A DNA stretch of 64,000 bases. Source: Candidatus Heimdallarchaeum aukensis (GTDB lineage: Archaea > Asgardarchaeota > Heimdallarchaeia > Heimdallarchaeales > Heimdallarchaeaceae). The notes under the pieces were generated by a model. That model saw nothing but the letters and a program-made list of their open reading frames with translations, was not told the DNA's origin and searched no databases. A program made the translations under genes and the position numbers. Where the stretch lies: positions 352,001 to 416,000 of the forward strand of contig CP084166.1 in assembly GCA_021513695.1 (NCBI GenBank), in the 5' to 3' direction. Below are positions 10,343 to 57,979 of this stretch, piece by piece (positions within the stretch are counted from its first letter, which is position 1; each line of letters begins with the position of its first letter).

Positions 10343-12343
10343 TTAGATTTTTTCATTTATCCAAATTTGCATCTCTGTTTTTCCTCTGTTTTCCCACAAA
10401 AAGTAAGGTGTCGCAATTATTTTTTCTCCAGATTGGTTTCTTGTTTCAATTATTTTTATATTACCAAAGTTTGGAAATAGAAAATCTTTAACTTCTATCT
10501 GTGAAGTATCTATTGTTTCAAAAGGAATCTTGGAATTAGGATTGTCGATTTTTTCAAAACAATAAACTAATGGACCATAACTCAAAGCTATTTTTCTTCT
10601 ATTTTCTTTTATTTTCTTATGTGAATAAAGTTTGGTTACATTCATTTGAAATTCTAAGTCTATTTCTGTTTTGTTAGAAAAGTTATCTTCAAGGGTAACA
10701 TATTCTGAAAGAAGAGGGTTGTATCCTGAAGCGGTAGTAATAGTTTCACTATTAGTTTGGTGATTAAATTCTTTGTTTTGACCATTAATACTAATCTTCA
10801 TTTTTTTTGTCCAAGAAGGAAAGCGAAAATGTAATTTAGAAAGTTTATAATTTGATTTTTTAAAATTGATAAACAACTTTACCTTTCCTTCCCAAGGAAA
10901 ATAAGAAACAAGAGAAAGATTGATTTCTTGGCCAATTTTTGAGCTGTTACTTATGTATTGATGTATCCATAATTCTGATTCTTTCATAGAGTAAATATAA
11001 TCTCCAACTTTAGCAATTGTTCTTGAATAGTTGGAAGGGCAACAAGCAGTTCGATACCAGTTTTGTCTTTCATAATTGCCATTTGAAATCATTGGATTGT
11101 AATAAAAATACTTTGTTCCATCGATTGAGGATGAAACTAAAATTGCATTGTATAATTGCCATTCAATCAAATCAGAATAACATGCTTTTCCAGTTAATTT
11201 TAACAACTCATTAGACCAGAAAACACTTCCAATGGCAGCACAAGTTTCACAATAGGCATATTTTTGAGGAAGTTCATAGGCTTTACCAAAACCTTCAAGC
11301 ATAGGTAGAGAACCTATTCCTCCTGTTGCATACATATATTTTGTAACCATTTCTTTCCAGATTCTCTCAAGTTGTTGTAGGTAAATTTTATTTTCTAATT
11401 CTTGTTGTAGTAGAGCAGCAGCTGTCATAAAATAAGTAAATCGCACACTATGACCTACAGGATGTTTCATTTTAAAAAAAGGTTTGTTATGTTGCATATA
11501 TTTACCTGTGAGAGCACTATAATAAAATCTAAATTTAAGAAAAGGAATATCATCAATTTTTAAGTCACTCATAACTTTTTTTTCATATTCCTTATTATGA
11601 GTTAATTTTTCTATCTGCTTGTTAACTTCTTTTGTTCGCTCTTCTACAGATAAAAATTCCTTTATCATTTGAATAAAGAATAGTTTTTTTCTTCCTCTGT
11701 TTTCAATAAATTTTTTAGCTAAATTTAGGTATCTCCTATCATTATTAACTCTAAATAACTTTATTAAAGCAATTTCAATTTCTTGATGCCCAGGAACTTC
11801 TATTTTTTTTGAATTAAAAAATTGGATATAGATCGCTTCAGCTAGTTTTTCAGCAATCTGGAGAAAAGTTTTTTCTCTTGTAGTTTGATAATGTTCAACT
11901 GCAGCTTCAATTAAATGTCCTGCAGTATATAGTTCGTGTTCAATTAAGAGATTCTTCCACTTTGTTTCAGGAAAGAAGAATTGATTGTATGTAAAAATAT
12001 ACCCATCTTCATCTTGAGCTTCTTGAAGGAGTTTAATATATAGATCTATTAATTCTTTTAATTTCGTGTTTTTTCTTGCTGAAGAGATCCTAATTGCAGC
12101 TTCTGACCACTTATGGGCGTCTGAGTCCCAGTAAGAAAGACCTTTTCTGTATCCCTCTTTGTTCTTTGCAATAATTCTGAAATTGTCAATACAACCACTT
12201 TTTTCTAACATTTTCCATTGGTGAAAAATAGCTTTTTCTGCATTGACATCCTGTTTATTTTTCCAAAAACCGTTGTTAATTTTAATTTGTGAATATGGAA
12301 TAGATATGAAAAAAATGTTAGGAGAATTAGTATTTTCGCTCAT
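10343..12343 (-). CDS. Glycoside hydrolase family 127-like (DUF1680 / beta-L-arabinofuranosidase-like) protein
   Basis: About 666 aa. N-terminal IPYSQIKINNGFWKNKQDVNAEKAIFHQWKMLEKSGCIDNFRIIAK resembles the DUF1680/GH127 N-terminus. Cys-rich C-terminal part (CETC, CCPSN). The start was moved to MSENT to avoid overlap with mtd. Assignment is from memory. Confidence 0.45.
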   Translation of the reverse strand: MSENTNSPNIFFISIPYSQIKINNGFWKNKQDVNAEKAIFHQWKMLEKSGCIDNFRIIAKNKEGYRKGLSYWDSDAHKWSEAAIRISSARKNTKLKELIDLYIKLLQEAQDEDGYIFTYNQFFFPETKWKNLLIEHELYTAGHLIEAAVEHYQTTREKTFLQIAEKLAEAIYIQFFNSKKIEVPGHQEIEIALIKLFRVNNDRRYLNLAKKFIENRGRKKLFFIQMIKEFLSVEERTKEVNKQIEKLTHNKEYEKKVMSDLKIDDIPFLKFRFYYSALTGKYMQHNKPFFKMKHPVGHSVRFTYFMTAAALLQQELENKIYLQQLERIWKEMVTKYMYATGGIGSLPMLEGFGKAYELPQKYAYCETCAAIGSVFWSNELLKLTGKACYSDLIEWQLYNAILVSSSIDGTKYFYYNPMISNGNYERQNWYRTACCPSNYSRTIAKVGDYIYSMKESELWIHQYISNSSKIGQEINLSLVSYFPWEGKVKLFINFKKSNYKLSKLHFRFPSWTKKMKISINGQNKEFNHQTNSETITTASGYNPLLSEYVTLEDNFSNKTEIDLEFQMNVTKLYSHKKIKENRRKIALSYGPLVYCFEKIDNPNSKIPFETIDTSQIEVKDFLFPNFGNIKIIETRNQSGEKIIATPYFLWENRGKTEMQIWINEKI

Positions 12344-43896: not shown

Positions 43897-44016
43897 TTTT
43901 GTATTCCCAAAGAAAACTTCTAAAATATTTTTTTTTGAATTCTTTAAAGATTTTTCGGAATGAATGTTTTTTTAAATAAGTTACTTTTTCACTTTCAAAC
44001 AAGTGTCTAAAAAAGA

Positions 44017-44030
44017 TTTTAAATAGTATA
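44017..44030 (+). promoter_or_regulatory. TATA-box-like element (ttttaaatagtata) about 20-30 nt upstream of the nurA start, pointing to a near-leaderless operon start
   Basis: Direct reading. Position relative to the nurA ATG at 44049. Confidence 0.3.
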
Positions 44031-44048
44031 AGATTTAGAAAAATAAAG

Positions 44049-45362
44049 ATGCAAACTTTCTTTGACTCAGCTTTAGAAGCAGAATTTAATAAAATATACG
44101 AAAAATTGAAAAAACTTGAACGAAAAAACGATGACGAGTATCAAAGTGACTTGTCTTTCCTACTTGAACATTTTAGGATTTTTGAACCACTTGATACTAC
44201 TTGTCAAAGAGAAGACTTTAGCGTTTCTGCAATAGATGGGAGTGGAGCCAGCGATTTAATTAAATTGAATAATATTTCAGTACACCTTATCACTGCAGGC
44301 TTTTCTGCAGATCAAACAGATTTTAAAAAAGGAACCACAACAGAATTAGATATTAGACCTGAAATTAGTACATATCCCAACGGTGTAACTAAACTTGTTT
44401 TAATAAGAGAAGATGAAGAACTAGAAGTATGGGAAGAAATTACCAATTTTGTAAGAGAAAATTATGGTAAAGAACCAAAAGAAATAGTTTTTGATGTTCT
44501 TAGGACCATGATTTTAAGAAAAATGGAAAATGAAGGTAAAGATATTTCCAAAATACGAATAAAAAACACTTTCGAATTATTACATCAAGCTAAACTTGCA
44601 GGTTTTACTCTTTATAATAAACCATTAGAAAAATTTCATGAATGGATGATAAGTCCGAGACCACAGACTGGATGGTATGACCAGTTTAGAGAAATATTAG
44701 AATATTCTCTGGCATTTTCTATTTTGAAAACTAATAAAAAAATAAAATATTTATTCATTGATGGTTCAATGAACATGCTAATCTCAAAGAATCATAATCA
44801 ACCAAGATTAATTTCTAATTACCTTTTACGTGATTTATGTACAGAAGCTCTAAAGCGAGACACATGTGTAGTAGCTGTAAGTAAAACAACTACTTTTCCT
44901 TTTATTTACAAAATAGCTCAAGATGTTAGAAATCATCTTAAAGGAGAAAAAAAATGGTTTTTCCGTGTTCCTTCTAAGGAATTAGGAGAGACTCCTCTTC
45001 GTCTGTTAGAAGGAAAAAGTATTCCTCCAGAGAATGCTATTACTTATCTTTTCCATTTTTCTGCAGATTTACCTGTTTTAAGGATAGACTTCGATTTAGA
45101 TTGGTGGAAGAAGAATATTCATTCAGAAGATAAAGAAAAAGAGAAAGAGAGAGAAGTTGAGATGTTTAAAGAAATTGATTGGTTGTCTCGAGATGTAAGA
45201 TATCATGGTTATCTTTTTGATCTTGCTTTCTCTCATTTTAATGCTCTAATAACTTTCAAAGAGAGAGATTTAATTGCGGATAGATTAATTGATTTCTTTA
45301 CTGAAAAAGGTGAAGATCCAAGGAGATATATACACCCAAGAAAAAGATTAGGATTAATGTAA
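44049..45362 (+). CDS. nurA: NurA-family 5'-3' nuclease (HerA partner)
   Basis: 437 aa. N-terminal VSAIDGSGAS (the NurA motif-I Asp in an IDGS context), plus a second FIDGSMN. Immediately upstream of herA with a 12-nt gap. The operon context supports the call. Confidence 0.55.
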   Translation: MQTFFDSALEAEFNKIYEKLKKLERKNDDEYQSDLSFLLEHFRIFEPLDTTCQREDFSVSAIDGSGASDLIKLNNISVHLITAGFSADQTDFKKGTTTELDIRPEISTYPNGVTKLVLIREDEELEVWEEITNFVRENYGKEPKEIVFDVLRTMILRKMENEGKDISKIRIKNTFELLHQAKLAGFTLYNKPLEKFHEWMISPRPQTGWYDQFREILEYSLAFSILKTNKKIKYLFIDGSMNMLISKNHNQPRLISNYLLRDLCTEALKRDTCVVAVSKTTTFPFIYKIAQDVRNHLKGEKKWFFRVPSKELGETPLRLLEGKSIPPENAITYLFHFSADLPVLRIDFDLDWWKKNIHSEDKEKEKEREVEMFKEIDWLSRDVRYHGYLFDLAFSHFNALITFKERDLIADRLIDFFTEKGEDPRRYIHPRKRLGLM

Positions 45363-45374
45363 AAAGGTGAAAAA

Positions 45375-47255
45375 ATGGTAAAATTAGAATTAACAGAACC
45401 AATAGGAATATTAGCAGAAGGAGATATCTCATCGTTAAAAGTGATATCAAAGGATATTAGATATCAAGTTGGTGAAATATTAATTATCACCCATCCTGAA
45501 ACTCCGGAAATCTATTTGTTTCGGGTGATGAATTATGAAAATATTCTCCGATCAAGTTCTGATATGAGCTATGTTGCTTCAAATATTTTGAAAAACAGAA
45601 CAGCATATATTGCGAGGGTAGAAAATGAGAAAATGGTAAAAGTATCTGGAATCTTGATGGGTTACTCTCTTTATGATGAAAATAAGAAAAAGTGGATTCT
45701 ACATAAACCTCGCTCTCTCCCTCCTCATTTTTCATATGTTTATCGAGGGTCTGAGTGTAAAGCAGCCTTACAAGATCTCTTATGGTCAGAATTTGGTAAT
45801 GATATAGAAATAGGAAAATTACAAGTAGGTGCTACAACCTTAGATATCCCAATTAAACTAGATGTAGAAGCTCTTCCAATGCATGTACAAGTAGCAGGAA
45901 CAACAGGAGCAGGAAAATCTTTCTTCATGTTGACAATGATTACTTCAAGTCTTAAAAATAATGTAATTAACGCTTTAAAACCTTCAAAGGCAGATACTAT
46001 TAACAAGAAAATTTCTTTCTTCATGGTAGACGTACATGATGAATACATGAGAGGAATGAAAGAACCTGAAACAAATGCAAGATATGGTATAAAAGATATA
46101 GCTGAAGCAAGCTTAAAGCAAGATAAAGATATTTACAACCTTCTATTTGGAAAGAATTTCTATCTTACTTCTGATATGGAAAGTGTAGAAAAAGATATGC
46201 AAAAATATGCTAAAGCCTTACGTTTCAGACTTGAAGATATAGAGGTAAGTGATATCATTTCAGTAATGGAAGTCACAGATCAAATGGCTTCATTCATGTA
46301 TTGGATTAAATCTCATAATGAAAATTGGATTTCAACTATTTTAGAATTAGGAGAAGAAGATGATCAAGGAGGATTTTCTAAAGGGACAGTAAATGCAGTA
46401 AAAAGAAGGCTCAGGAGTATATACAACTCTCCTATTTTCAGAGAGTCGAGAACTATCACAACTTCTGATGAAAAAAATCAAGAACAATCAAGCGTTAGTT
46501 TTAGTGATTTAGCAGAAATAGTTTACAATTTAGAACAAGGACATTTCTATAATTTTAGTTCAGCACTATTAAGTTCGACAGAACAATTTATCGTTTTAAC
46601 TATGTTAGCAAGAACAATCTTTGCTTTAAGACAATCTTTAATGTCTTCTACAAGATGGTCTCAGTTTGAAAAACAAGTAGAGTCAAGATTACCAAGACAA
46701 ATAAGTAACGAATTGCTAGGAAAAACAAATTCTTCTTTTTCGATAAAGGATCTCTATATTAAAAATAAAGAAGGAAACGACTATATTCTTAAAAAAGTGA
46801 ATGAACTTCCTGTAATTCTTCTCACAATTGAAGAAGCTCCAAGTATTTTGGGAGTACAGATGTCTAAACAAGGAAATGTGTTCGTTGACATTAGTAGACA
46901 AGGAAGAAAGTTTGGAATAGGCATGTTACTTATTACTCAAAATATTTCAGCGATGGAACCTTTGATTTTAGCCAATACAAACACAGAAATAAACATGATG
47001 CTAGGAAATGAGATAGAGATAAAACAAGCAATCATCAACGCCAGTAACAACATTACAGGATACGAACATGAGTTTAGAGTATTAAACAGAGGTGAAGCTA
47101 TAGTTACTAACTCTTTACGCAATATTCCCATGCCTGTGAAGATACACAATGCACCAGTTTTAATTAAAGAAAATTTGTCTTTCTTTGAAAATCCTTATGA
47201 TAGTTTGAAAATAAAAAAAGAAAAAAGGATATCTAAAGATATTCCTCTTCTTTAA
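45375..47255 (+). CDS. herA: HerA-family (FtsK/HerA superfamily) hexameric DNA translocase/helicase
   Basis: 626 aa. Walker A VAGTTGAGKS. Candidate Walker B FFMVDVHDEY. Conserved C-terminal RQGRKFGIGMLLITQNIS (the HerA arginine-finger region). The N-terminal region before the ATPase core is consistent with a HAS barrel. Confidence 0.75.
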   Translation: MVKLELTEPIGILAEGDISSLKVISKDIRYQVGEILIITHPETPEIYLFRVMNYENILRSSSDMSYVASNILKNRTAYIARVENEKMVKVSGILMGYSLYDENKKKWILHKPRSLPPHFSYVYRGSECKAALQDLLWSEFGNDIEIGKLQVGATTLDIPIKLDVEALPMHVQVAGTTGAGKSFFMLTMITSSLKNNVINALKPSKADTINKKISFFMVDVHDEYMRGMKEPETNARYGIKDIAEASLKQDKDIYNLLFGKNFYLTSDMESVEKDMQKYAKALRFRLEDIEVSDIISVMEVTDQMASFMYWIKSHNENWISTILELGEEDDQGGFSKGTVNAVKRRLRSIYNSPIFRESRTITTSDEKNQEQSSVSFSDLAEIVYNLEQGHFYNFSSALLSSTEQFIVLTMLARTIFALRQSLMSSTRWSQFEKQVESRLPRQISNELLGKTNSSFSIKDLYIKNKEGNDYILKKVNELPVILLTIEEAPSILGVQMSKQGNVFVDISRQGRKFGIGMLLITQNISAMEPLILANTNTEINMMLGNEIEIKQAIINASNNITGYEHEFRVLNRGEAIVTNSLRNIPMPVKIHNAPVLIKENLSFFENPYDSLKIKKEKRISKDIPLL

Positions 47256-47288
47256 TAATAGAATCAAAAATAATTTGAATGAAAGAAG

Positions 47289-48570
47289 GTGAAATTAGTG
47301 GTAAAAATAGCTCATATGTCTGATACTCATTTATCACATAGAAGAGTAAGAAATGTTAGAGATAGTTGGAAAGAAAGATATAGAGTAAGTTGGATAGAGA
47401 ATGACTTTTCATTAGCTTTTCAAAGAGCTTTAGATGCAGCTATTGAAACTAAATGTGATTTTCTAGTTCATTCAGGAGATTTGTTTGATGTTCCTGTAAA
47501 AAGAAATACAACTTCACCTTCTGAATATGCAAGAGCTATTGCAATAAGTGAAATAAGAAGATTTTTGGAAGCTACACATTTTAAAGTACCTATAATTATA
47601 ATTGATGGAAATCATGGAACTTATCTTTACAGGAATAATAGTACTATAGAATTCATAAAATCAGCTTTCCCTGAAAATGTGTTTATAGCCACAAATTATG
47701 ACCTTAAACGAGCAATAGTAAAAAATGAACCTTTGAAAGTAGAGTTTGAAGAGATTAACTTTTATCTGTTTCCTTATTTAGAATTCAAATCTATGGCTAA
47801 TTATGAAGAACTCTATGATGAATGGATAAGTAAATGCCAAGAGCCTGAAGACGGAAAAATTAATGTTGCAGTAGCTCACGGAATGTTTAGGAATTTGGAT
47901 TTGCATGAAAAATTATTCTCTTTTCCTTATGATTATGTAGCTTTAGGACACGATCACCAACAAAGAAAATATGCTCCAAACGCTTGGCAAGCAGGAAGTA
48001 CAGAAAAATATACCTTTGCTGAAAGAGGACAAGAAAAGTATTTTAGAAGTTATTATTGAGAAAGGAAAAAATTTACACATTAATCCAATAAAGGTTGTTA
48101 GCCAAAGAGAAATGAAACAATTCGAAGTAGAATTAAGTTCAGACATGAGTGCATTAACTGTAGAAGAAAAAATAAGAGAACTTGTAGCAAGTTATAGAAA
48201 GAACTTTGATGGAAACACAGCTGCGAGAATAAAAGTTAAGTTACAAGGAAAAACTTCTCTCTCCTACTGGTGGACAATAGAAGATCGTTTAGTAGAAATA
48301 CAGAAAAATGTTCTAACTGAAGAATATAACATCCTAGAATTTAGATGGGATGAAGAAGAGTTAAAGAAATCTATACCTCAAAGCCTAGCCAAAACACCAC
48401 AAATGGATCAATACCTAATTGAAGATCCAGTCAGGGATTTTGTAAATTATTTGAAAAACTTAGAAATAGATGATGAAGTAAAATTTGAACAATATGCAAA
48501 ACTAGGACCAGAAATAATTAAAGAGGTTTTTAGTGAAGGATTTATTTCTTCAAAGGAGGAGTTAGAATGA
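47289..48570 (+). pseudogene. mre11: mre11 copy 1, disrupted by a frameshift (split into ORFs 47289..48059 and 47971..48570)
   Basis: All Mre11 phosphoesterase motifs are present (DTHLS, GDLFD, GNHG, VAHG, GHDHQ). The reading frame changes at caagaaaag|tatttt (about 48036). Copy 2 has caagaaaaaggtatttt and a single 427-aa ORF. Confidence 0.8.
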
Positions 48571-50699
48571 AAATTCTTTGGATACACATGGAGAATTTTA
48601 AATGCTACCGCAATGAGAGGATTCCAGAAACAGGTATCCTTCCAAAAGGATTGATTTTTGTAGAGGGAGAGAATTCGGTAGGAAAAACTTCTTTGTTTGA
48701 TGCAATATATTACGCTCTTTTTTACGAACCTACAAAGGACAAAGCCATTTTAGGTACAAAAGATATGCTAGTAAAAAGAGGAGAAAAAGAGACTATCGTA
48801 GAAGTTGCTTTTGAAATAATGAATAAATACTTTGTAGTACAAAAGCAACATGGAATATCAACTCCTCTAAAAGTAGTTTTACTTCAAATTGATAGAGAGA
48901 TGGCTGAAAAAGGAGAATTAAAAAATCCCATTAAAATAGCAGAAGGACTAGAGGATGTAAACAAGAAATTGTTTGAACTATTAAATATCACAAGCGAAAG
49001 CGTGTTGAGCACTCTAATAGTAAATCAAGGAGAAGTGCAAAAACTAGCAGAAGCTAAAGGAGCAGAACTTAGAGATATAATTTACAAACTTTTTCATTTA
49101 GATGATATAAGAGAAAAGTTGAAACGTGTGATTAATAGAAAAATGGAGATTTTAGATGAAGAATGGGAAAAATACAAAATTGAGCGCACAACAGAGAATA
49201 TTCTTGAAGAAATTAAAGAAATAGAGATAGAGAAAGAAACGAAAGAGAAAGAGTTAGTAAAAGCAAAAAATGAACTGGAAAAAATAGAAGAGAAAATCTC
49301 TCAATATCCTAAACATGAAGATATTCAATCAATAAGCAATATTTTAACTCAAATACAGCAAACCAAAGAAACTATTTCTAAGCAAGAAAGAATAATTAAA
49401 CAAAAATCTGAAACTTTAGAAATCAAGGAACTAACACAAGAAGAAATAAAGGATAAAATCTTAGAAATAGAGAAGATTATTCAGAAAACTAACAATAACA
49501 TAGAAAATTTAAGAAACAAAAGAGATAAAGTCCAGAAAAAGTTGCATAGTCTCCAAAGAGATCTTGCTGAAATAAAAGAAAAAATCAAGAAACTAGAAAG
49601 TCATGAAGTAGGACATGAAGAAGATTTTACTTGCGAATTATGCGAACAAACGATGCCCTACTCGAAATTTAAGGAATTAGTAGAGAGTAAAAAACAATCA
49701 ATTACAAATATTGAATTAGGGATTAAGAAAAGAACTGCAGAAAAAAGAGAAGTAGAGAAACAAATTGAAAAAGAAAGCAATTATATTAATAAGCTAAAAG
49801 AACAAATTTTTTCACTTAATAATGTCAAAGATAGGCTAGATAATCTAGAGAATAACAAGAAAGAATTGGATAAAAAACAAAATAATTTAATAACACAACT
49901 TAAAAAATTCAAAGTCCAGACAGTTGATCAGCTTTCAAAGAAATATAATGTCGAAAACTTTGAGGAATTCTTTTCAATTATAAGTCAACTGAAATCTGAT
50001 AAAGCTAGTCTAAATGCATCAATAAGTCATCTAAATAAAACTATTGAAAAACTAAAACAAAGGAAAAATCAATTAGAAAAAGAAATAGACAAAAATAAGG
50101 AAAAGGAAGAGAAACAAGAGAGTATTCTTCAAGAACAAGCTGCACTAAAAGATGTAGAAGGTGTAGTTTCAAGTTTTATAGCTGAGGAGCTAATCTCCAA
50201 TAGATTGCTTGCAGGAATACAGCAGACAACTAATCCTAATATAAACTTGTTTACGAGAGGAAAATACTCAGAGATATATCTAGAAGCAACTACAAAGAAA
50301 ACTTTAAGGTTAAGCGTTTTAGACAAAGAAGAAGAATTCGTAAAAAATCAAGAGTTCCTTTCAGGAGGAGATAAAGCAGCTATAGGACTAGGATTGAGAT
50401 TAGGTATAAGCGAATTACTAAAACAAATTAGACCATTCAAAGATTCTCCTCATAATCCTCCAAGGATGGATATAATGATACTTGATGAGCCTTTGGGTTC
50501 ACTTGATAGTGAAAGAAGGAAAAAAGTTCTAGAAGGATTGTTGATACAGAAGAAATTCAGTCAAATATTTCTGATTACACATACAAATGTTAGAGAAGAA
50601 CTTCGAGCTCCTTCAATTCGAGTAAGTAGAACAGAAAAAGGTAGCTCTACAGCCTATTACCCTGCTCCAAGTAAAATAGAGTTAGAATCTGAAGAATGA
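48567..50699 (+). CDS. rad50: Rad50-family SMC-like ATPase (copy 1)
   Basis: 710 aa. Walker A GENSVGKTSLFDAI. Long central coiled coil with a CxxC zinc hook (CELC) near the mid-point (about residue 354). Signature LSGGDKAAIGLGLRL. Walker B IMILDEP. H-loop LITHT. The start overlaps the mre11 stop (ATGA). Confidence 0.8.
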   Translation: MKILWIHMENFKCYRNERIPETGILPKGLIFVEGENSVGKTSLFDAIYYALFYEPTKDKAILGTKDMLVKRGEKETIVEVAFEIMNKYFVVQKQHGISTPLKVVLLQIDREMAEKGELKNPIKIAEGLEDVNKKLFELLNITSESVLSTLIVNQGEVQKLAEAKGAELRDIIYKLFHLDDIREKLKRVINRKMEILDEEWEKYKIERTTENILEEIKEIEIEKETKEKELVKAKNELEKIEEKISQYPKHEDIQSISNILTQIQQTKETISKQERIIKQKSETLEIKELTQEEIKDKILEIEKIIQKTNNNIENLRNKRDKVQKKLHSLQRDLAEIKEKIKKLESHEVGHEEDFTCELCEQTMPYSKFKELVESKKQSITNIELGIKKRTAEKREVEKQIEKESNYINKLKEQIFSLNNVKDRLDNLENNKKELDKKQNNLITQLKKFKVQTVDQLSKKYNVENFEEFFSIISQLKSDKASLNASISHLNKTIEKLKQRKNQLEKEIDKNKEKEEKQESILQEQAALKDVEGVVSSFIAEELISNRLLAGIQQTTNPNINLFTRGKYSEIYLEATTKKTLRLSVLDKEEEFVKNQEFLSGGDKAAIGLGLRLGISELLKQIRPFKDSPHNPPRMDIMILDEPLGSLDSERRKKVLEGLLIQKKFSQIFLITHTNVREELRAPSIRVSRTEKGSSTAYYPAPSKIELESEE

Positions 50700-50775
50700 T
50701 TCTTTTTTCATTATCTTTATCTTTTTTGAGAATAATATTTATATCTAAAAATGGAAATGTTCTCTAGGGTTTGAA

Positions 50776-52146
50776 ATGATACCTGGAACACTTAGACCTT
50801 TACCAAAAAGATTAGCTAAAGTAAAAACAGAAGCTGAAAGGCTTTTTAGAGCAGTGGACTATGATTACGAGACTATTAAAGAAATACTAAAATCTAGTAA
50901 AAATTTTGAATTTGAAGAAATAAGAAGACAATATATTAATTGTATAAATCATCACATAAGAATAGTTCCACTCGTAAAAGAAGCAGATAAATTGTTAGTT
51001 AAATATTCAAGAGATCCACTTCTAAAAGAAATGGTTTTCAAACTATTTGATAAGTTGGAAAAATATGAATACAGATTGAATGGTGATATTCAACGACTTG
51101 ATACTATTTTAATGTCGAAAAGAAAAGAATACATCAATAAAACAATTCCACTAGTGAAATCAGAAATAAGAAGCAAGTTATCTTTCTTAAGAGACCTAGA
51201 TTTTGAGCAATTACTCGCTGACAGTGAAAAATATTCTGCTATTATTTCAGGCATCGTAGATCGTGTAAATATATTAAAAGACGAGTATCAAAAATTAATC
51301 GAAAATGCTCTTGAAAGCGCAGTAGAAGCTTATAAAGAGTTAAAAGAAAAACTAGACGAACTTGAAGATGAACTAAAAGAGTATGTTCTTATTCTTGCTA
51401 CTTGTAAGATGGAATTGCTAATTAACGATTCAAAAACTTTGCTTGAAGAAGGAGTTAAAATATTCGAACGTTTTGAATTAGAACAAACAACTGAACTCAT
51501 AGAAGAAGCACAAGAGTACCTAGAAAAAGCAAAACCAACTCTAAAAGAGATGAATGAATTAAAGGTAGATATTCCTAAAAAAGCAATGAAAAAGAGCTTT
51601 GAAACAAAATTCCGAGAATTAAGAAATAAATTCGAAGAAAATAAATTTACTCTAGATGAATTGATAAACAACATCGAAACTAGAAATAGGTTACTATCGA
51701 CAAATATTGAAAGAATTGATGCATTAAAAGAGCTAGCAAAATCAATGTCGAGTGACATCAAAGAAACAGGAGAAATATTAAAAATAAAAAGAATGGGTAC
51801 ATTTAAACTATACTTGAAAGAAAATCTTATTCCACACATGGAGTTGCAAGAAAATGGTATAGTAAAAATACCAAAGGCAGAAGAACTCACGGCAACTTTT
51901 ATAGATGAAATAATCTTGACTCTTGAAGATGTAGATAATAAAAATATAGTTAAGGACTGGTTCAATGCTTTTAGAGCAACAAAAGTAGGTAAGTGGATAT
52001 ATGAAACTTCAATCAAAATTAAAAATAAAATAGTAGACATAACAAAGAAGATTGTAAAAAAAACTAAAAAATGGATCCAAGAAATGAAAGAAAAAAGAGA
52101 ACAGAAAAAATCGCAAGAAAATCAACAAAAAGAAGAGAAGAAATAG
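50776..52146 (+). CDS. Uncharacterised 456-aa coiled-coil protein (copy 1), co-oriented immediately after rad50
   Basis: Highly charged sequence with heptad-like K/E/L content throughout. No enzymatic motif. Lysine-rich C-terminal tail. Duplicated with mre11-rad50. Confidence 0.6.
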   Translation: MIPGTLRPLPKRLAKVKTEAERLFRAVDYDYETIKEILKSSKNFEFEEIRRQYINCINHHIRIVPLVKEADKLLVKYSRDPLLKEMVFKLFDKLEKYEYRLNGDIQRLDTILMSKRKEYINKTIPLVKSEIRSKLSFLRDLDFEQLLADSEKYSAIISGIVDRVNILKDEYQKLIENALESAVEAYKELKEKLDELEDELKEYVLILATCKMELLINDSKTLLEEGVKIFERFELEQTTELIEEAQEYLEKAKPTLKEMNELKVDIPKKAMKKSFETKFRELRNKFEENKFTLDELINNIETRNRLLSTNIERIDALKELAKSMSSDIKETGEILKIKRMGTFKLYLKENLIPHMELQENGIVKIPKAEELTATFIDEIILTLEDVDNKNIVKDWFNAFRATKVGKWIYETSIKIKNKIVDITKKIVKKTKKWIQEMKEKREQKKSQENQQKEEKK

Positions 52147-52311
52147 CAACATTATGTGATTTTGTGTTTTTGTGTAAAAATTCTCTATTTTTTTGTTAAA
52201 TTTATTACTATATAATAATGAATACAAAAAGAAATTAGGTTGAAATTATATCATTCATTGAATTTTTGAAAAAATTTTTGCCAAAAAAAATAAATATTTA
52301 GTTATATATAT

Positions 52312-52542
52312 GTGGTATGTATTAAAATGACTTCAGATTCATCTTGTTATTGTATTGTAAGAATAACTTGGCCTAAATGGATAGTTGCAACTGGACAGAT
52401 AGCTTTAGGTATTGGAATACTCTTATTGATCATTTTTTCGATCTTTTACACAAAGACAAGTTGGGAAAATTTTTCGCTATACGGAATCTACGTGGGAGCA
52501 GGTTTTTTGCTACTTGGGGCACTAATTAGCTATAGTTACTAA
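52312..52542 (+). CDS. Small 2-TM membrane protein (copy 1). The last 5 codons are replaced by the duplication junction, so it ends ...LISYSY instead of ...LILSSNDW
   Basis: 76 aa, two hydrophobic helices. Its C-terminus reads into the herA 3' fragment at 52528. Confidence 0.4.
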   Translation: MVCIKMTSDSSCYCIVRITWPKWIVATGQIALGIGILLLIIFSIFYTKTSWENFSLYGIYVGAGFLLLGALISYSY

Positions 52543-52687
52543 CTCTTTACGCAATATTCCCATGCCTGTGAAGATACACAATGCACCAGTTTTAATTAAA
52601 GAAAATTTGTCTTTCTTTGAAAATCCTTATGATAGTTTGAAAATAAAAAAAGAAAAAAGGATATCTAAAGATATTCCTCTTCTTTAA
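52528..52687 (+). pseudogene. herA: Orphan herA 3' fragment (last 53 codons plus stop) created by the tandem duplication
   Basis: Identical to 47096..47255. No start codon and no upstream herA body. Confidence 0.8.
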
Positions 52688-52720
52688 TAATAGAATCAAA
52701 AATAATTTGAATGAAAGAAG

Positions 52721-54004
52721 GTGAAATTAGTGGTAAAAATAGCTCATATGTCTGATACTCATTTATCACATAGAAGAGTAAGAAATGTTAGAGATAGTTG
52801 GAAAGAAAGATATAGAGTAAGTTGGATAGAGAATGACTTTTCATTAGCTTTTCAAAGAGCTTTAGATGCAGCTATTGAAACTAAATGTGATTTTCTAGTT
52901 CATTCAGGAGATTTGTTTGATGTTCCTGTAAAAAGAAATACAACTTCACCTTCTGAATATGCAAGAGCTATTGCAATAAGTGAAATAAGAAGATTTTTGG
53001 AAGCTACACATTTTAAAGTACCTATAATTATAATTGATGGAAATCATGGAACTTATCTTTACAGGAATAATAGTACTATAGAATTCATAAAATCAGCTTT
53101 CCCTGAAAATGTGTTTATAGCCACAAATTATGACCTTAAACGAGCAATAGTAAAAAATGAACCTTTGAAAGTAGAGTTTGAAGAGATTAACTTTTATCTG
53201 TTTCCTTATTTAGAATTCAAATCTATGGCTAATTATGAAGAACTCTATGATGAATGGATAAGTAAATGCCAAGAGCCTGAAGACGGAAAAATTAATGTTG
53301 CAGTAGCTCACGGAATGTTTAGGAATTTGGATTTGCATGAAAAATTATTCTCTTTTCCTTATGATTATGTAGCTTTAGGACACGATCACCAACAAAGAAA
53401 ATATGCTCCAAACGCTTGGCAAGCAGGAAGTACAGAAAAATATACCTTTGCTGAAAGAGGACAAGAAAAAGGTATTTTAGAAGTTATTATTGAGAAAGGA
53501 AAAAATTTACACATTAATCCAATAAAGGTTGTTAGCCAAAGAGAAATGAAACAATTCGAAGTAGAATTAAGTTCAGACATGAGTGCATTAACTGTAGAAG
53601 AAAAAATAAGAGAACTTGTAGCAAGTTATAGAAAGAACTTTGATGGAAACACAGCTGCGAGAATAAAAGTTAAGTTACAAGGAAAAACTTCTCTCTCCTA
53701 CTGGTGGACAATAGAAGATCGTTTAGTAGAAATACAGAAAAATGTTCTAACTGAAGAATATAACATCCTAGAATTTAGATGGGATGAAGAAGAGTTAAAG
53801 AAATCTATACCTCAAAGCCTAGCCAAAACACCACAAATGGATCAATACCTAATTGAAGATCCAGTCAGGGATTTTGTAAATTATTTGAAAAACTTAGAAA
53901 TAGATGATGAAGTAAAATTTGAACAATATGCAAAACTAGGACCAGAAATAATTAAAGAGGTTTTTAGTGAAGGATTTATTTCTTCAAAGGAGGAGTTAGA
54001 ATGA
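52721..54004 (+). CDS. mre11: Mre11 nuclease (calcineurin-like phosphoesterase), intact copy
   Basis: 427 aa, uninterrupted. Motifs I-V: HMSDTHLSH, DFLVHSGDLFD, IIDGNHG, VAVAHG, ALGHDHQ. The C-terminal capping/DNA-binding domain is present. Confidence 0.85.
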   Translation: MKLVVKIAHMSDTHLSHRRVRNVRDSWKERYRVSWIENDFSLAFQRALDAAIETKCDFLVHSGDLFDVPVKRNTTSPSEYARAIAISEIRRFLEATHFKVPIIIIDGNHGTYLYRNNSTIEFIKSAFPENVFIATNYDLKRAIVKNEPLKVEFEEINFYLFPYLEFKSMANYEELYDEWISKCQEPEDGKINVAVAHGMFRNLDLHEKLFSFPYDYVALGHDHQQRKYAPNAWQAGSTEKYTFAERGQEKGILEVIIEKGKNLHINPIKVVSQREMKQFEVELSSDMSALTVEEKIRELVASYRKNFDGNTAARIKVKLQGKTSLSYWWTIEDRLVEIQKNVLTEEYNILEFRWDEEELKKSIPQSLAKTPQMDQYLIEDPVRDFVNYLKNLEIDDEVKFEQYAKLGPEIIKEVFSEGFISSKEELE

Positions 54005-56130
54005 AAATTCTTTGGATACACATGGAGAATTTTAAATGCTACCGCAATGAGAGGATTCCAGAAACAGGTATCCTTCCAAAAGGATTGATTTTTGTAGAGG
54101 GAGAGAATTCGGTAGGAAAAACTTCTTTGTTTGATGCAATATATTACGCTCTTTTTTACGAACCTACAAAGGACAAAGCCATTTTAGGTACAAAAGATAT
54201 GCTAGTAAAAAGAGGAGAAAAAGAGACTATCGTAGAAGTTGCTTTTGAAATAATGAATAAATACTTTGTAGTACAAAAGCAACATGGAATATCAACTCCT
54301 CTAAAAGTAGTTTTACTTCAAATTGATAGAGAGATGGCTGAAAAAGGAGAATTAAAAAATCCCATTAAAATAGCAGAAGGACTAGAGGATGTAAACAAGA
54401 AATTGTTTGAACTATTAAATATCACAAGCGAAAGCGTGTTGAGCACTCTAATAGTAAATCAAGGAGAAGTGCAAAAACTAGCAGAAGCTAAAGGAGCAGA
54501 ACTTAGAGATATAATTTACAAACTTTTTCATTTAGATATAAGAGAAAAGTTGAAACGTGTGATTAATAGAAAAATGGAGATTTTAGATGAAGAATGGGAA
54601 AAATACAAAATTGAGCGCACAACAGAGAATATTCTTGAAGAAATTAAAGAAATAGAGATAGAGAAAGAAACGAAAGAGAAAGAGTTAGTAAAAGCAAAAA
54701 ATGAACTGGAAAAAATAGAAGAGAAAATCTCTCAATATCCTAAACATGAAGATATTCAATCAATAAGCAATATTTTAACTCAAATACAGCAAACCAAAGA
54801 AACTATTTCTAAGCAAGAAAGAATAATTAAACAAAAATCTGAAACTTTAGAAATCAAGGAACTAACACAAGAAGAAATAAAGGATAAAATCTTAGAAATA
54901 GAGAAGATTATTCAGAAAACTAACAATAACATAGAAAATTTAAGAAACAAAAGAGATAAAGTCCAGAAAAAGTTGCATAGTCTCCAAAGAGATCTTGCTG
55001 AAATAAAAGAAAAAATCAAGAAACTAGAAAGTCATGAAGTAGGACATGAAGAAGATTTTACTTGCGAATTATGCGAACAAACGATGCCCTACTCGAAATT
55101 TAAGGAATTAGTAGAGAGTAAAAAACAATCAATTACAAATATTGAATTAGGGATTAAGAAAAGAACTGCAGAAAAAAGAGAAGTAGAGAAACAAATTGAA
55201 AAAGAAAGCAATTATATTAATAAGCTAAAAGAACAAATTTTTTCACTTAATAATGTCAAAGATAGGCTAGATAATCTAGAGAATAACAAGAAAGAATTGG
55301 ATAAAAAACAAAATAATTTAATAACACAACTTAAAAAATTCAAAGTCCAGACAGTTGATCAGCTTTCAAAGAAATATAATGTCGAAAACTTTGAGGAATT
55401 CTTTTCAATTATAAGTCAACTGAAATCTGATAAAGCTAGTCTAAATGCATCAATAAGTCATCTAAATAAAACTATTGAAAAACTAAAACAAAGGAAAAAT
55501 CAATTAGAAAAAGAAATAGACAAAAATAAGGAAAAGGAAGAGAAACAAGAGAGTATTCTTCAAGAACAAGCTGCACTAAAAGATGTAGAAGGTGTAGTTT
55601 CAAGTTTTATAGCTGAGGAGCTAATCTCCAATAGATTGCTTGCAGGAATACAGCAGACAACTAATCCTAATATAAACTTGTTTACGAGAGGAAAATACTC
55701 AGAGATATATCTAGAAGCAACTACAAAGAAAACTTTAAGGTTAAGCGTTTTAGACAAAGAAGAAGAATTCGTAAAAAATCAAGAGTTCCTTTCAGGAGGA
55801 GATAAAGCAGCTATAGGACTAGGATTGAGATTAGGTATAAGCGAATTACTAAAACAAATTAGACCATTCAAAGATTCTCCTCATAATCCTCCAAGGATGG
55901 ATATAATGATACTTGATGAGCCTTTGGGTTCACTTGATAGTGAAAGAAGGAAAAAAGTTCTAGAAGGATTGTTGATACAGAAGAAATTCAGTCAAATATT
56001 TCTGATTACACATACAAATGTTAGAGAAGAACTTCGAGCTCCTTCAATTCGAGTAAGTAGAACAGAAAAAGGTAGCTCTACAGCCTATTACCCTGCTCCA
56101 AGTAAAATAGAGTTAGAATCTGAAGAATGA
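54001..56130 (+). CDS. rad50: Rad50-family ATPase (copy 2; one Asp codon shorter, HLDIREK instead of HLDDIREK)
   Basis: 709 aa. Identical to copy 1 except for the in-frame 3-nt deletion. Confidence 0.8.
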   Translation: MKILWIHMENFKCYRNERIPETGILPKGLIFVEGENSVGKTSLFDAIYYALFYEPTKDKAILGTKDMLVKRGEKETIVEVAFEIMNKYFVVQKQHGISTPLKVVLLQIDREMAEKGELKNPIKIAEGLEDVNKKLFELLNITSESVLSTLIVNQGEVQKLAEAKGAELRDIIYKLFHLDIREKLKRVINRKMEILDEEWEKYKIERTTENILEEIKEIEIEKETKEKELVKAKNELEKIEEKISQYPKHEDIQSISNILTQIQQTKETISKQERIIKQKSETLEIKELTQEEIKDKILEIEKIIQKTNNNIENLRNKRDKVQKKLHSLQRDLAEIKEKIKKLESHEVGHEEDFTCELCEQTMPYSKFKELVESKKQSITNIELGIKKRTAEKREVEKQIEKESNYINKLKEQIFSLNNVKDRLDNLENNKKELDKKQNNLITQLKKFKVQTVDQLSKKYNVENFEEFFSIISQLKSDKASLNASISHLNKTIEKLKQRKNQLEKEIDKNKEKEEKQESILQEQAALKDVEGVVSSFIAEELISNRLLAGIQQTTNPNINLFTRGKYSEIYLEATTKKTLRLSVLDKEEEFVKNQEFLSGGDKAAIGLGLRLGISELLKQIRPFKDSPHNPPRMDIMILDEPLGSLDSERRKKVLEGLLIQKKFSQIFLITHTNVREELRAPSIRVSRTEKGSSTAYYPAPSKIELESEE

Positions 56131-56206
56131 TTCTTTTTTCATTATCTTTATCTTTTTTGAGAATAATATTTATATCTAAAAATGGAAATGTTCTCTAGGG
56201 TTTGAA

Positions 56207-57577
56207 ATGATACCTGGAACACTTAGACCTTTACCAAAAAGATTAGCTAAAGTAAAAACAGAAGCTGAAAGGCTTTTTAGAGCAGTGGACTATGATTACG
56301 AGACTATTAAAGAAATACTAAAATCTAGTAAAAATTTTGAATTTGAAGAAATAAGAAGACAATATATTAATTGTATAAATCATCACATAAGAATAGTTCC
56401 ACTCGTAAAAGAAGCAGATAAATTGTTAGTTAAATATTCAAGAGATCCACTTCTAAAAGAAATGGTTTTCAAACTATTTGATAAGTTGGAAAAATATGAA
56501 TACAGATTGAATGGTGATATTCAACGACTTGATACTATTTTAATGTCGAAAAGAAAAGAATACATCAATAAAACAATTCCACTAGTGAAATCAGAAATAA
56601 GAAGCAAGTTATCTTTCTTAAGAGACCTAGATTTTGAGCAATTACTCGCTGACAGTGAAAAATATTCTGCTATTATTTCAGGCATCGTAGATCGTGTAAA
56701 TATATTAAAAGACGAGTATCAAAAATTAATCGAAAATGCTCTTGAAAGCGCAGTAGAAGCTTATAAAGAGTTAAAAGAAAAACTAGACGAACTTGAAGAT
56801 GAACTAAAAGAGTATGTTCTTATTCTTGCTACTTGTAAGATGGAATTGCTAATTAACGATTCAAAAACTTTGCTTGAAGAAGGAGTTAAAATATTCGAAC
56901 GTTTTGAATTAGAACAAACAACTGAACTCATAGAAGAAGCACAAGAGTACCTAGAAAAAGCAAAACCAACTCTAAAAGAGATGAATGAATTAAAGGTAGA
57001 TATTCCTAAAAAAGCAATGAAAAAGAGCTTTGAAACAAAATTCCGAGAATTAAGAAATAAATTCGAAGAAAATAAATTTACTCTAGATGAATTGATAAAC
57101 AACATCGAAACTAGAAATAGGTTACTATCGACAAATATTGAAAGAATTGATGCATTAAAAGAGCTAGCAAAATCAATGTCGAGTGACATCAAAGAAACAG
57201 GAGAAATATTAAAAATAAAAAGAATGGGTACATTTAAACTATACTTGAAAGAAAATCTTATTCCACACATGGAGTTGCAAGAAAATGGTATAGTAAAAAT
57301 ACCAAAGGCAGAAGAACTCACGGCAACTTTTATAGATGAAATAATCTTGACTCTTGAAGATGTAGATAATAAAAATATAGTTAAGGACTGGTTCAATGCT
57401 TTTAGAGCAACAAAAGTAGGTAAGTGGATATATGAAACTTCAATCAAAATTAAAAATAAAATAGTAGACATAACAAAGAAGATTGTAAAAAAAACTAAAA
57501 AATGGATCCAAGAAATGAAAGAAAAAAGAGAACAGAAAAAATCGCAAGAAAATCAACAAAAAGAAGAGAAGAAATAG
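56207..57577 (+). CDS. Uncharacterised 456-aa coiled-coil protein (copy 2)
   Basis: Identical to 50776..52146. Confidence 0.6.
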   Translation: MIPGTLRPLPKRLAKVKTEAERLFRAVDYDYETIKEILKSSKNFEFEEIRRQYINCINHHIRIVPLVKEADKLLVKYSRDPLLKEMVFKLFDKLEKYEYRLNGDIQRLDTILMSKRKEYINKTIPLVKSEIRSKLSFLRDLDFEQLLADSEKYSAIISGIVDRVNILKDEYQKLIENALESAVEAYKELKEKLDELEDELKEYVLILATCKMELLINDSKTLLEEGVKIFERFELEQTTELIEEAQEYLEKAKPTLKEMNELKVDIPKKAMKKSFETKFRELRNKFEENKFTLDELINNIETRNRLLSTNIERIDALKELAKSMSSDIKETGEILKIKRMGTFKLYLKENLIPHMELQENGIVKIPKAEELTATFIDEIILTLEDVDNKNIVKDWFNAFRATKVGKWIYETSIKIKNKIVDITKKIVKKTKKWIQEMKEKREQKKSQENQQKEEKK

Positions 57578-57742
57578 CAACATTATGTGATTTTGTGTTT
57601 TTGTGTAAAAATTCTCTATTTTTTTGTTAAATTTATTACTATATAATAATGAATACAAAAAGAAATTAGGTTGAAATTATATCATTCATTGAATTTTTGA
57701 AAAAATTTTTGCCAAAAAAAATAAATATTTAGTTATATATAT

Positions 57743-57979
57743 GTGGTATGTATTAAAATGACTTCAGATTCATCTTGTTATTGTATTGTAAGAATAACTT
57801 GGCCTAAATGGATAGTTGCAACTGGACAGATAGCTTTAGGTATTGGAATACTCTTATTGATCATTTTTTCGATCTTTTACACAAAGACAAGTTGGGAAAA
57901 TTTTTCGCTATACGGAATCTACGTGGGAGCAGGTTTTTTGCTACTTGGGGCACTAATTCTATCAAGTAATGACTGGTAG
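57743..57979 (+). CDS. Small 2-TM membrane protein (copy 2, presumed original C-terminus)
   Basis: 78 aa. Identical to copy 1 up to residue 71. Confidence 0.4.
   Translation: MVCIKMTSDSSCYCIVRITWPKWIVATGQIALGIGILLLIIFSIFYTKTSWENFSLYGIYVGAGFLLLGALILSSNDW

Follow-up and report, generated by a model that had tools for sequence, protein, structure and literature searches.

The DNA-repair gene cluster of the Asgard archaeon Candidatus Heimdallarchaeum aukensis raises the question of what is encoded by the gene that directly follows rad50. In the 64,000-nucleotide stretch analyzed here, which we call the window (GenBank assembly GCA_021513695.1, contig CP084166.1, positions 352,001 to 416,000), this gene, hereafter X, occupies positions 50776..52146 of the forward strand as an ATG-to-stop open reading frame (ORF) for a protein of 456 amino acids (aa), and starts 76 nt past the stop of rad50 (48567-50699) on the same strand, exactly as an earlier note made from the letters alone had described. 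That note also guessed an Asgard source, and rightly so: a database search showed that the product is 100% identical to K9W45_01580 of Ca. H. aukensis, encoded on a 3.08-Mb contig. Its central proposal was that X is an accessory factor "embedded" in an mre11-rad50 unit. We find instead that X is the last gene, standing behind a four-gene operon for a NurA-like nuclease, HerA, Mre11 and Rad50, and we propose, with a probability of about 0.35, that its most likely specific role is that of an adaptor or scaffold of the end-resection machinery. Position is the sole link between X and Mre11-Rad50; any binding by X, the partner it would bind and any influence on resection are what we infer. To our knowledge no fifth partner of the archaeal NurA-HerA-Mre11-Rad50 system is established, and a literature search on the X family and on Asgard Mre11-Rad50 partners returned nothing relevant and no such partner.

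We first consider whether X is a gene at all. The genome has a G+C content of only ~30%, in which long ORFs can arise by chance, an antisense ORF of 236 aa overlaps each copy of X in the window (51330-52040 and 56761-57471, both on the reverse strand), and on this basis X might be taken for a spurious frame whose two copies are meaningless. This explanation is refuted and its probability is close to nil, given the presence of 31 orthologous clusters with an invariant start and invariant motifs, a confident AlphaFold2 model, and a ratio of nonsynonymous to synonymous substitution rates (dN/dS) of 0.09 against the orthologue in Ca. H. endolithica, which indicates strong purifying selection. In the same comparison Rad50 gave 0.092, and values of 0.05-0.06 were obtained for Mre11, HerA and the product of the first operon gene. 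It is the antisense ORF that is the artefact: its F/L-rich translation mirrors the K/E-rich codons of X, and it is not a gene. X is thus a real, constrained gene.

The homologues recovered by database search form 31 clusters at 90% identity and show 38-88% identity. All named sources are Heimdallarchaeaceae or metagenome-assembled genomes of Heimdallarchaeota, bar one deposited as 'Asgard group archaeon', and the X family is confined to the Heimdallarchaeaceae. A profile built from the 31 sequences and run against 1.84 billion representative proteins retrieved 13 representatives, all of them full-length or fragmentary members of the family, and nothing outside it. The alignment of the 31 sequences, whose overall identity is just 38-42%, revealed an invariant N-terminal peptide, MIPGTLRPLPK, and the conserved blocks RLDTILMSKRK..IP, SKLSFL.DL and LIL.TCKM. 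The N-terminal peptide is both conserved and basic, and the triplet K115-R116-K117 is invariant among the orthologues. Several orthologues carry a 23-residue insertion past the position of residue 338, approximately a third bear a C-terminal proline motif of the form (I/L)PxPP, and one clade ends in W/F/K-rich amphipathic helices; the window protein has none of these three features.

The C-terminus of X had been described as a poly-Lys/Gln tail able to bind nucleic acid. The last 57 residues are in fact a mixed, low-complexity K/E/Q segment, whose net charge in the window protein is +12. The net charge of the equivalent segment ranges from -1 to +16 across orthologues, and because charge, sequence and length all vary, the comparison does not support a conserved basic nucleic-acid-binding tail. 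This bears on the possibility that X is a structural protein of DNA or chromatin that uses basic patches and a K-rich tail to sit on DNA ends or on the nucleoid independently of Mre11-Rad50. The isoelectric point of 8.6, the positive tail of the window protein, the invariant KRK triplet and the proximity of the gene to DNA-repair genes would be compatible with such a protein; with its tail so variable, we consider this explanation quite improbable.

AlphaFold2 predicts an all-alpha structure for X (predicted local distance difference test, pLDDT, 85; predicted template modelling score, pTM, 0.60), in which a short extended N-terminal peptide is followed by helices of 28-59 residues arranged in consecutive bundles, a small mixed segment at approximately residues 323-372 and a C-terminal helix of lower confidence, with three very short strands in total. 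The characterization of X as an entirely charged and alpha-helical coiled coil therefore holds for its helical nature only: 39% of its residues are charged and ~40% hydrophobic, and in the model the chain doubles back to form helical bundles and does not extend as one long coiled coil. The lack of a catalytic motif, on the other hand, is confirmed, as the protein contains neither a P-loop (GxxxxGK[ST]) nor a CxxC motif in a motif scan and matches nothing in Pfam, NCBIfam or PHROG. A high-confidence all-alpha model devoid of catalytic or nucleotide-binding motifs fits a scaffold. The possibility that X belongs to a known unrelated family was also followed up, and none was found: PADLOC gave a single weak match (RT_UG33, E 0.002), all 31 family members searched against Pfam yielded only sub-threshold coiled-coil noise (Fzo_mitofusin in 16 of the 31, best E 7e-5), and sequence searches of the PDB with the X protein and with the X profile retrieved nothing. 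The model thus portrays X as an orphan, non-enzymatic rod of three-helix bundles.

In structural searches with Foldseek the best matches were generic three-helix bundles, among them the repeats of spectrin, plakin and alpha-actinin, which brings in the rival view that X is a helical scaffold unrelated to repair, for instance of the cytoskeleton, membrane or envelope, that lies beside the operon through family-wide synteny alone. The amphipathic W/F/K-rich C-terminal helices of some orthologues and the (I/L)PxPP motif in about a third of them would suit such a protein. These matches are, however, not significant (E of at least 0.003, template modelling (TM) scores of at most 0.26), X lacks a match to the Pfam Spectrin model, a transmembrane segment and a signal peptide, and the window protein has neither the amphipathic nor the proline motif, both of which are limited to certain clades. 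For the spectrin repeat itself (PF00435) the fold class agrees, with E of at least 0.02 and TM scores of at most 0.26, no Pfam match and no internal repeats (hhalign probability below 1%). Further, in contrast to spectrin, alpha-actinin and the plakins, X lacks an actin-binding CH domain. We read the match as a likeness of fold class and probably not as family membership. Helical rods of the CATCHR type (the MUN domain of Munc13, ZW10/Dsl1, RINT1/Tip20) are also among the closest known systems.

The earlier note had suggested comparing X with CtIP/Sae2, Nbs1, SbcE-type proteins and the kleisin or KITE proteins, and these comparisons uncovered no similarity of sequence or fold. For CtIP/Sae2/Ctp1 there was no SAE2 or CtIP_N match in Pfam at E <= 1 and no sequence or fold match in the PDB. 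For Nbs1/Xrs2 there was no FHA, BRCT or Nbs1_C match in Pfam at E <= 1, and the model contains no beta-sandwich or BRCT fold. Pfam kleisin, ScpA and ScpB matches were likewise lacking, the model has no winged-helix domain, and kleisins are missing among the fold matches. An SMC/Rad50/SbcC-like ATPase, including the SbcE type, is rejected on the missing GxxxxGK[ST] motif and on an hhalign probability of 1% between the X profile and the Rad50 profile of the family, and the latter also rejects derivation from the coiled coil of Rad50. The likeness of X to the eukaryotic factors Nbs1/Xrs2 and CtIP/Sae2/Ctp1 is thus conceptual only, in that each is a non-catalytic protein that works, or in the case of X possibly works, with Mre11-Rad50. 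As X is confined to one archaeal family, common descent with them is unsupported.

A small pointer to a possible partner comes from Rad50. All Rad50 proteins of the family (P0071-P0096) carry a conserved acidic C-terminal peptide, (F/Y)YPSPTEIEEEAEE, after the ATPase domain; in the window it is encoded at 50655-50696 and 56086-56127. This peptide is absent from four outgroup Rad50 proteins encoded at loci without X. Its co-occurrence with the basic K115-R116-K117 triplet and N-terminal peptide of X suggests that this tail may serve a partner as docking site. On this basis we envisage X as a non-enzymatic rod specific to the Heimdallarchaeaceae, with an invariant N-terminal peptide, a few invariant patches and a C-terminal tail that varies, is charged and is probably flexible; this rod would be expressed from its own promoter just downstream of the NurA-like/HerA/Mre11/Rad50 operon and would act as a lineage-specific adaptor or scaffold that binds the repair machinery via protein-protein contacts, the candidate docking site being the Rad50 acidic tail exclusive to the X-bearing clade. 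A more far-reaching version makes X a genuine fifth subunit, or else a regulator, of NurA-HerA-Mre11-Rad50 that arose in the Heimdallarchaeaceae, docks on the Rad50 tail and is an independent analogue of Nbs1 or CtIP. We regard this version as doubtful; if true, X would be the first accessory factor of an archaeal Mre11-Rad50.

The adaptor role also draws on gene order. Of 25 species-representative loci that include upstream DNA, all 25 show the order NurA-like gene, herA, mre11, rad50, X, as do the window, the contig L035 and further metagenome contigs; orthologues of X thus lie directly behind rad50, on its strand, and are never scattered, an outcome in line with the linkage anticipated by the earlier note. 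In the genus Heimdallarchaeum the synteny downstream of X is broken, and X has stayed with the operon. That X has never parted from rad50 despite this rearrangement speaks against its being an unrelated scaffold that merely travels with the neighborhood.

Several observations weigh against a role in resection. The X-bearing region is syntenic over ~20 kb across the Heimdallarchaeaceae, on both sides of X, with genes for an FAD oxidoreductase and VIT1 upstream and, in all genera except Heimdallarchaeum, genes for a HAD hydrolase, a luciferase-like protein, a nitroreductase and an ABC transporter downstream. Since X is confined to one family with such extensive synteny, its adjacency to rad50 is weak, non-independent evidence and may be merely inherited. 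The co-occurrence of X with the Rad50 tail is likewise a single phylogenetic event. The nearest outgroup locus (L036), which was obtained by scanning metagenomes with Mre11 and whose Mre11 is 41% identical, has the same four-gene order and no X, with an overlapping membrane-protein gene directly after rad50. Two more distant outgroup loci also lack X; an HtrA-type protease gene lies 640 nt past rad50 in one and an oppositely oriented esterase gene follows in the other. On the protein side, X has no recognizable DNA-binding domain and resembles none of the known Mre11 or Rad50 partners discussed above (CtIP/Sae2, Nbs1, kleisin/KITE, SMC-like) by sequence or fold. Finally, in a metagenome contig of the Joint Genome Institute (JGI, metagenome 3300033150) from a strain ~98.6% identical (L034), X has suffered a frameshifting deletion of 77 nt at approximately position 12330 of the contig, corresponding to 50903-50979 of the window; the deletion is flanked by short repeats and truncates X after 41 codons. 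The deletion may be a natural knockout or an error of assembly; should it be real, it would hint that X can be dispensed with.

The spacer between rad50 and X adds to these objections. The median gaps among the four operon genes are 13, 11 and 1 nt, as against a median of 61 nt (range 47-165, n=26) between rad50 and X. When 23 distinct upstream sequences are anchored on the ATG of X, positions -31 to -27 are all A/T and position -30 is an invariant T, and none of the 23 has a Shine-Dalgarno-like motif. In the window this region corresponds to a TATA-like box, ATAATATTTATATC, at 50732..50745 on the forward strand, 31-44 nt before the ATG; every orthologous locus has an equivalent, conserved A/T box. 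Given the longer spacer, the conserved A/T box and the lack of a Shine-Dalgarno motif, X appears to be transcribed from its own promoter into a leaderless or short-leader mRNA, and would be an at least partly independent transcription unit. Right after the rad50 stop (50700..50729, forward strand) the sequence also reads as two T6 runs, which are possible archaeal oligo-T terminators of the four-gene operon; comparable runs occur at several orthologous loci, though not at all of them. We also considered a TTTCAATA-like regulatory motif common to the promoters of the operon and of X and rejected it, since the element upstream of the operon is situated in a divergent intergenic region, where the promoter of the oppositely oriented VIT1 is the better explanation for it.

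A separate promoter-like box without a Shine-Dalgarno motif, a spacer several-fold longer than the gaps within the operon, the ~20 kb of flanking synteny and the nearest outgroup operons without X are all features that a helical scaffold with no part in repair would display. Set against its insignificant fold matches and its unbroken attachment to rad50, we judge such a scaffold to be somewhat unlikely. Any probability that the readings discussed here leave over falls to roles of X that none of them foresees.

The earlier note had also drawn functional evidence from the repetition of X together with mre11 and rad50. There is indeed a second ORF identical in sequence to X at 56207..57577 on the forward strand, in the second unit of a head-to-tail tandem repeat (47096..57958) consisting of units of 5432 nt (47096-52527) and 5431 nt (52528-57958) with the junction at 52527|52528. 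The repeat extends from inside the 3' end of herA through mre11, rad50 and X into a small membrane-protein ORF, a chimeric version of which spans the junction (52312-52542, forward strand, a copy of the ORF at 57743-57979). The two units have no mismatches and two indels: at 48037/48038, within an A/G homopolymer context, copy 1 has 2 nt fewer and mre11 is thereby frameshifted, and at 49101-49103 the rad50 of copy 1 has an extra GAT/ATG triplet (710 versus 709 aa).

By comparison, the unit occurs just once in the complete genome (L005) of Ca. H. endolithica, the sister species, and also just once in each of three independent short-read assemblies from strains that are the same or nearly identical. 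Perfect repeats collapse in short-read assemblers, which bears on these single-copy assemblies. An independent contig of 115.9 kb (L032) has no mismatches to the window and bears the intact version at both indel sites; its sole difference from copy 1 is the 2-nt indel in mre11, and the 3-nt indel in rad50 is all that separates it from copy 2. Both copies of the closed genome thus have one private indel apiece relative to the independent consensus. The genome of Ca. H. aukensis was assembled from Illumina contigs by LRScaf scaffolding with Nanopore reads of DNA subjected to multiple displacement amplification (MDA), followed by pilon polishing (PMC8813620). In light of the single copy in the sister genome and the three assemblies, the private indels and the assembly method, the 5.43-kb duplication is probably a scaffolding artefact and, real or not, it says nothing on the function of X. 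The apparent duplication of mre11-rad50 and the "frameshifted" mre11 should not be taken as biology before read depth and spanning reads are checked. The notion of X as an accessory factor of Mre11-Rad50 thus comes through the tests of linkage and of membership in known families; it loses the argument from duplication, and synteny, the promoter-like box of X and the X-less outgroups count against it.

The genes upstream of X constitute a genuine repair module for end resection. The first operon gene (44049..45362, forward strand, as are all that follow) encodes a 437-aa NurA-like nuclease that is recognized by fold only; it displays an RNase-H-like NurA fold and DGS-type motifs (AIDGSG, F.DGSMN) and lies next to herA (45375..47255), which encodes a HerA helicase/translocase of 626 aa identified by library matches. 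One outgroup contig has the same gene order with a NurA that Pfam recognizes. In copy 1 mre11 (47289..48570) is split into two ORFs (47289-48059 and 47971-48570) by the 2-nt deficit after 48037, and in copy 2 it is intact (52721..54004, 427 aa, library matches). The rad50 of copy 1 (48567..50699) encodes the 710-aa form also present in independent assemblies, with short coiled-coil arms, a CxxC zinc hook and the acidic C-terminal tail; that of copy 2 (54001..56130, 709 aa) is 3 nt shorter. Rad50 is encoded beside Mre11 and contains the hook motif FTCELCEQ, the signature LSGGDK and the Walker B motif ILDEP. It matches the NCBIfam Rad50 models with E values of 1e-28 to 1e-34, yet falls below their curated cut-offs, and is very diverged: in a word-indexed search of 5.8 billion proteins, with scores covering the 8,000 candidates that share most words, only family members scored above E 1e-13. 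At 709-710 aa it is also short relative to the 840-853 aa of Rad50 in the outgroup loci. For this Rad50 the PADLOC model for Lamassu LmuB scores comparably to the Rad50 models of NCBIfam, and HerA matches defence-type HerA models of PADLOC. We rejected a defence-system interpretation of the cluster on the basis of its fixed, syntenic chromosomal site in all family genomes, and the hook-bearing Rad50 together with Mre11 and NurA likewise counters it.

Upstream of the first operon gene (~43950-44048 and orthologous loci) there is a strongly conserved CCAAAAATATTTTAATA-like element resembling a B recognition element (BRE) and TATA box, followed by GGAGG before the ATG. A second conserved element, CACTTTYAAYACTTTTAA, lies further upstream and probably serves as promoter for VIT1, which is transcribed divergently. 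Downstream of X, the membrane-protein ORF at 57743..57979 (forward strand, 78 aa) is 83% identical in Ca. H. endolithica and is missing from this position in genera beyond Heimdallarchaeum.

The cluster represents a known archaeal system in a version with five genes. Relative to the NurA-HerA-Mre11-Rad50 clusters of the Sulfolobales and Thermococcales, the Heimdallarchaeaceae add X as a fifth gene that always follows the other four and has its own promoter-like box; their NurA and Rad50 have diverged to the point of being scarcely detected, or missed, by sequence models, and their Rad50 is short (~710 aa) and bears the additional acidic tail. If X does not bind the repair machinery, it is one further lineage-specific orphan protein. 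If it does, Mre11-Rad50 would have gained non-enzymatic adaptors in archaea near the stem of the eukaryotes, separately from Nbs1 and CtIP, and the Heimdallarchaeaceae would offer a simple system for understanding how adaptors tune resection.
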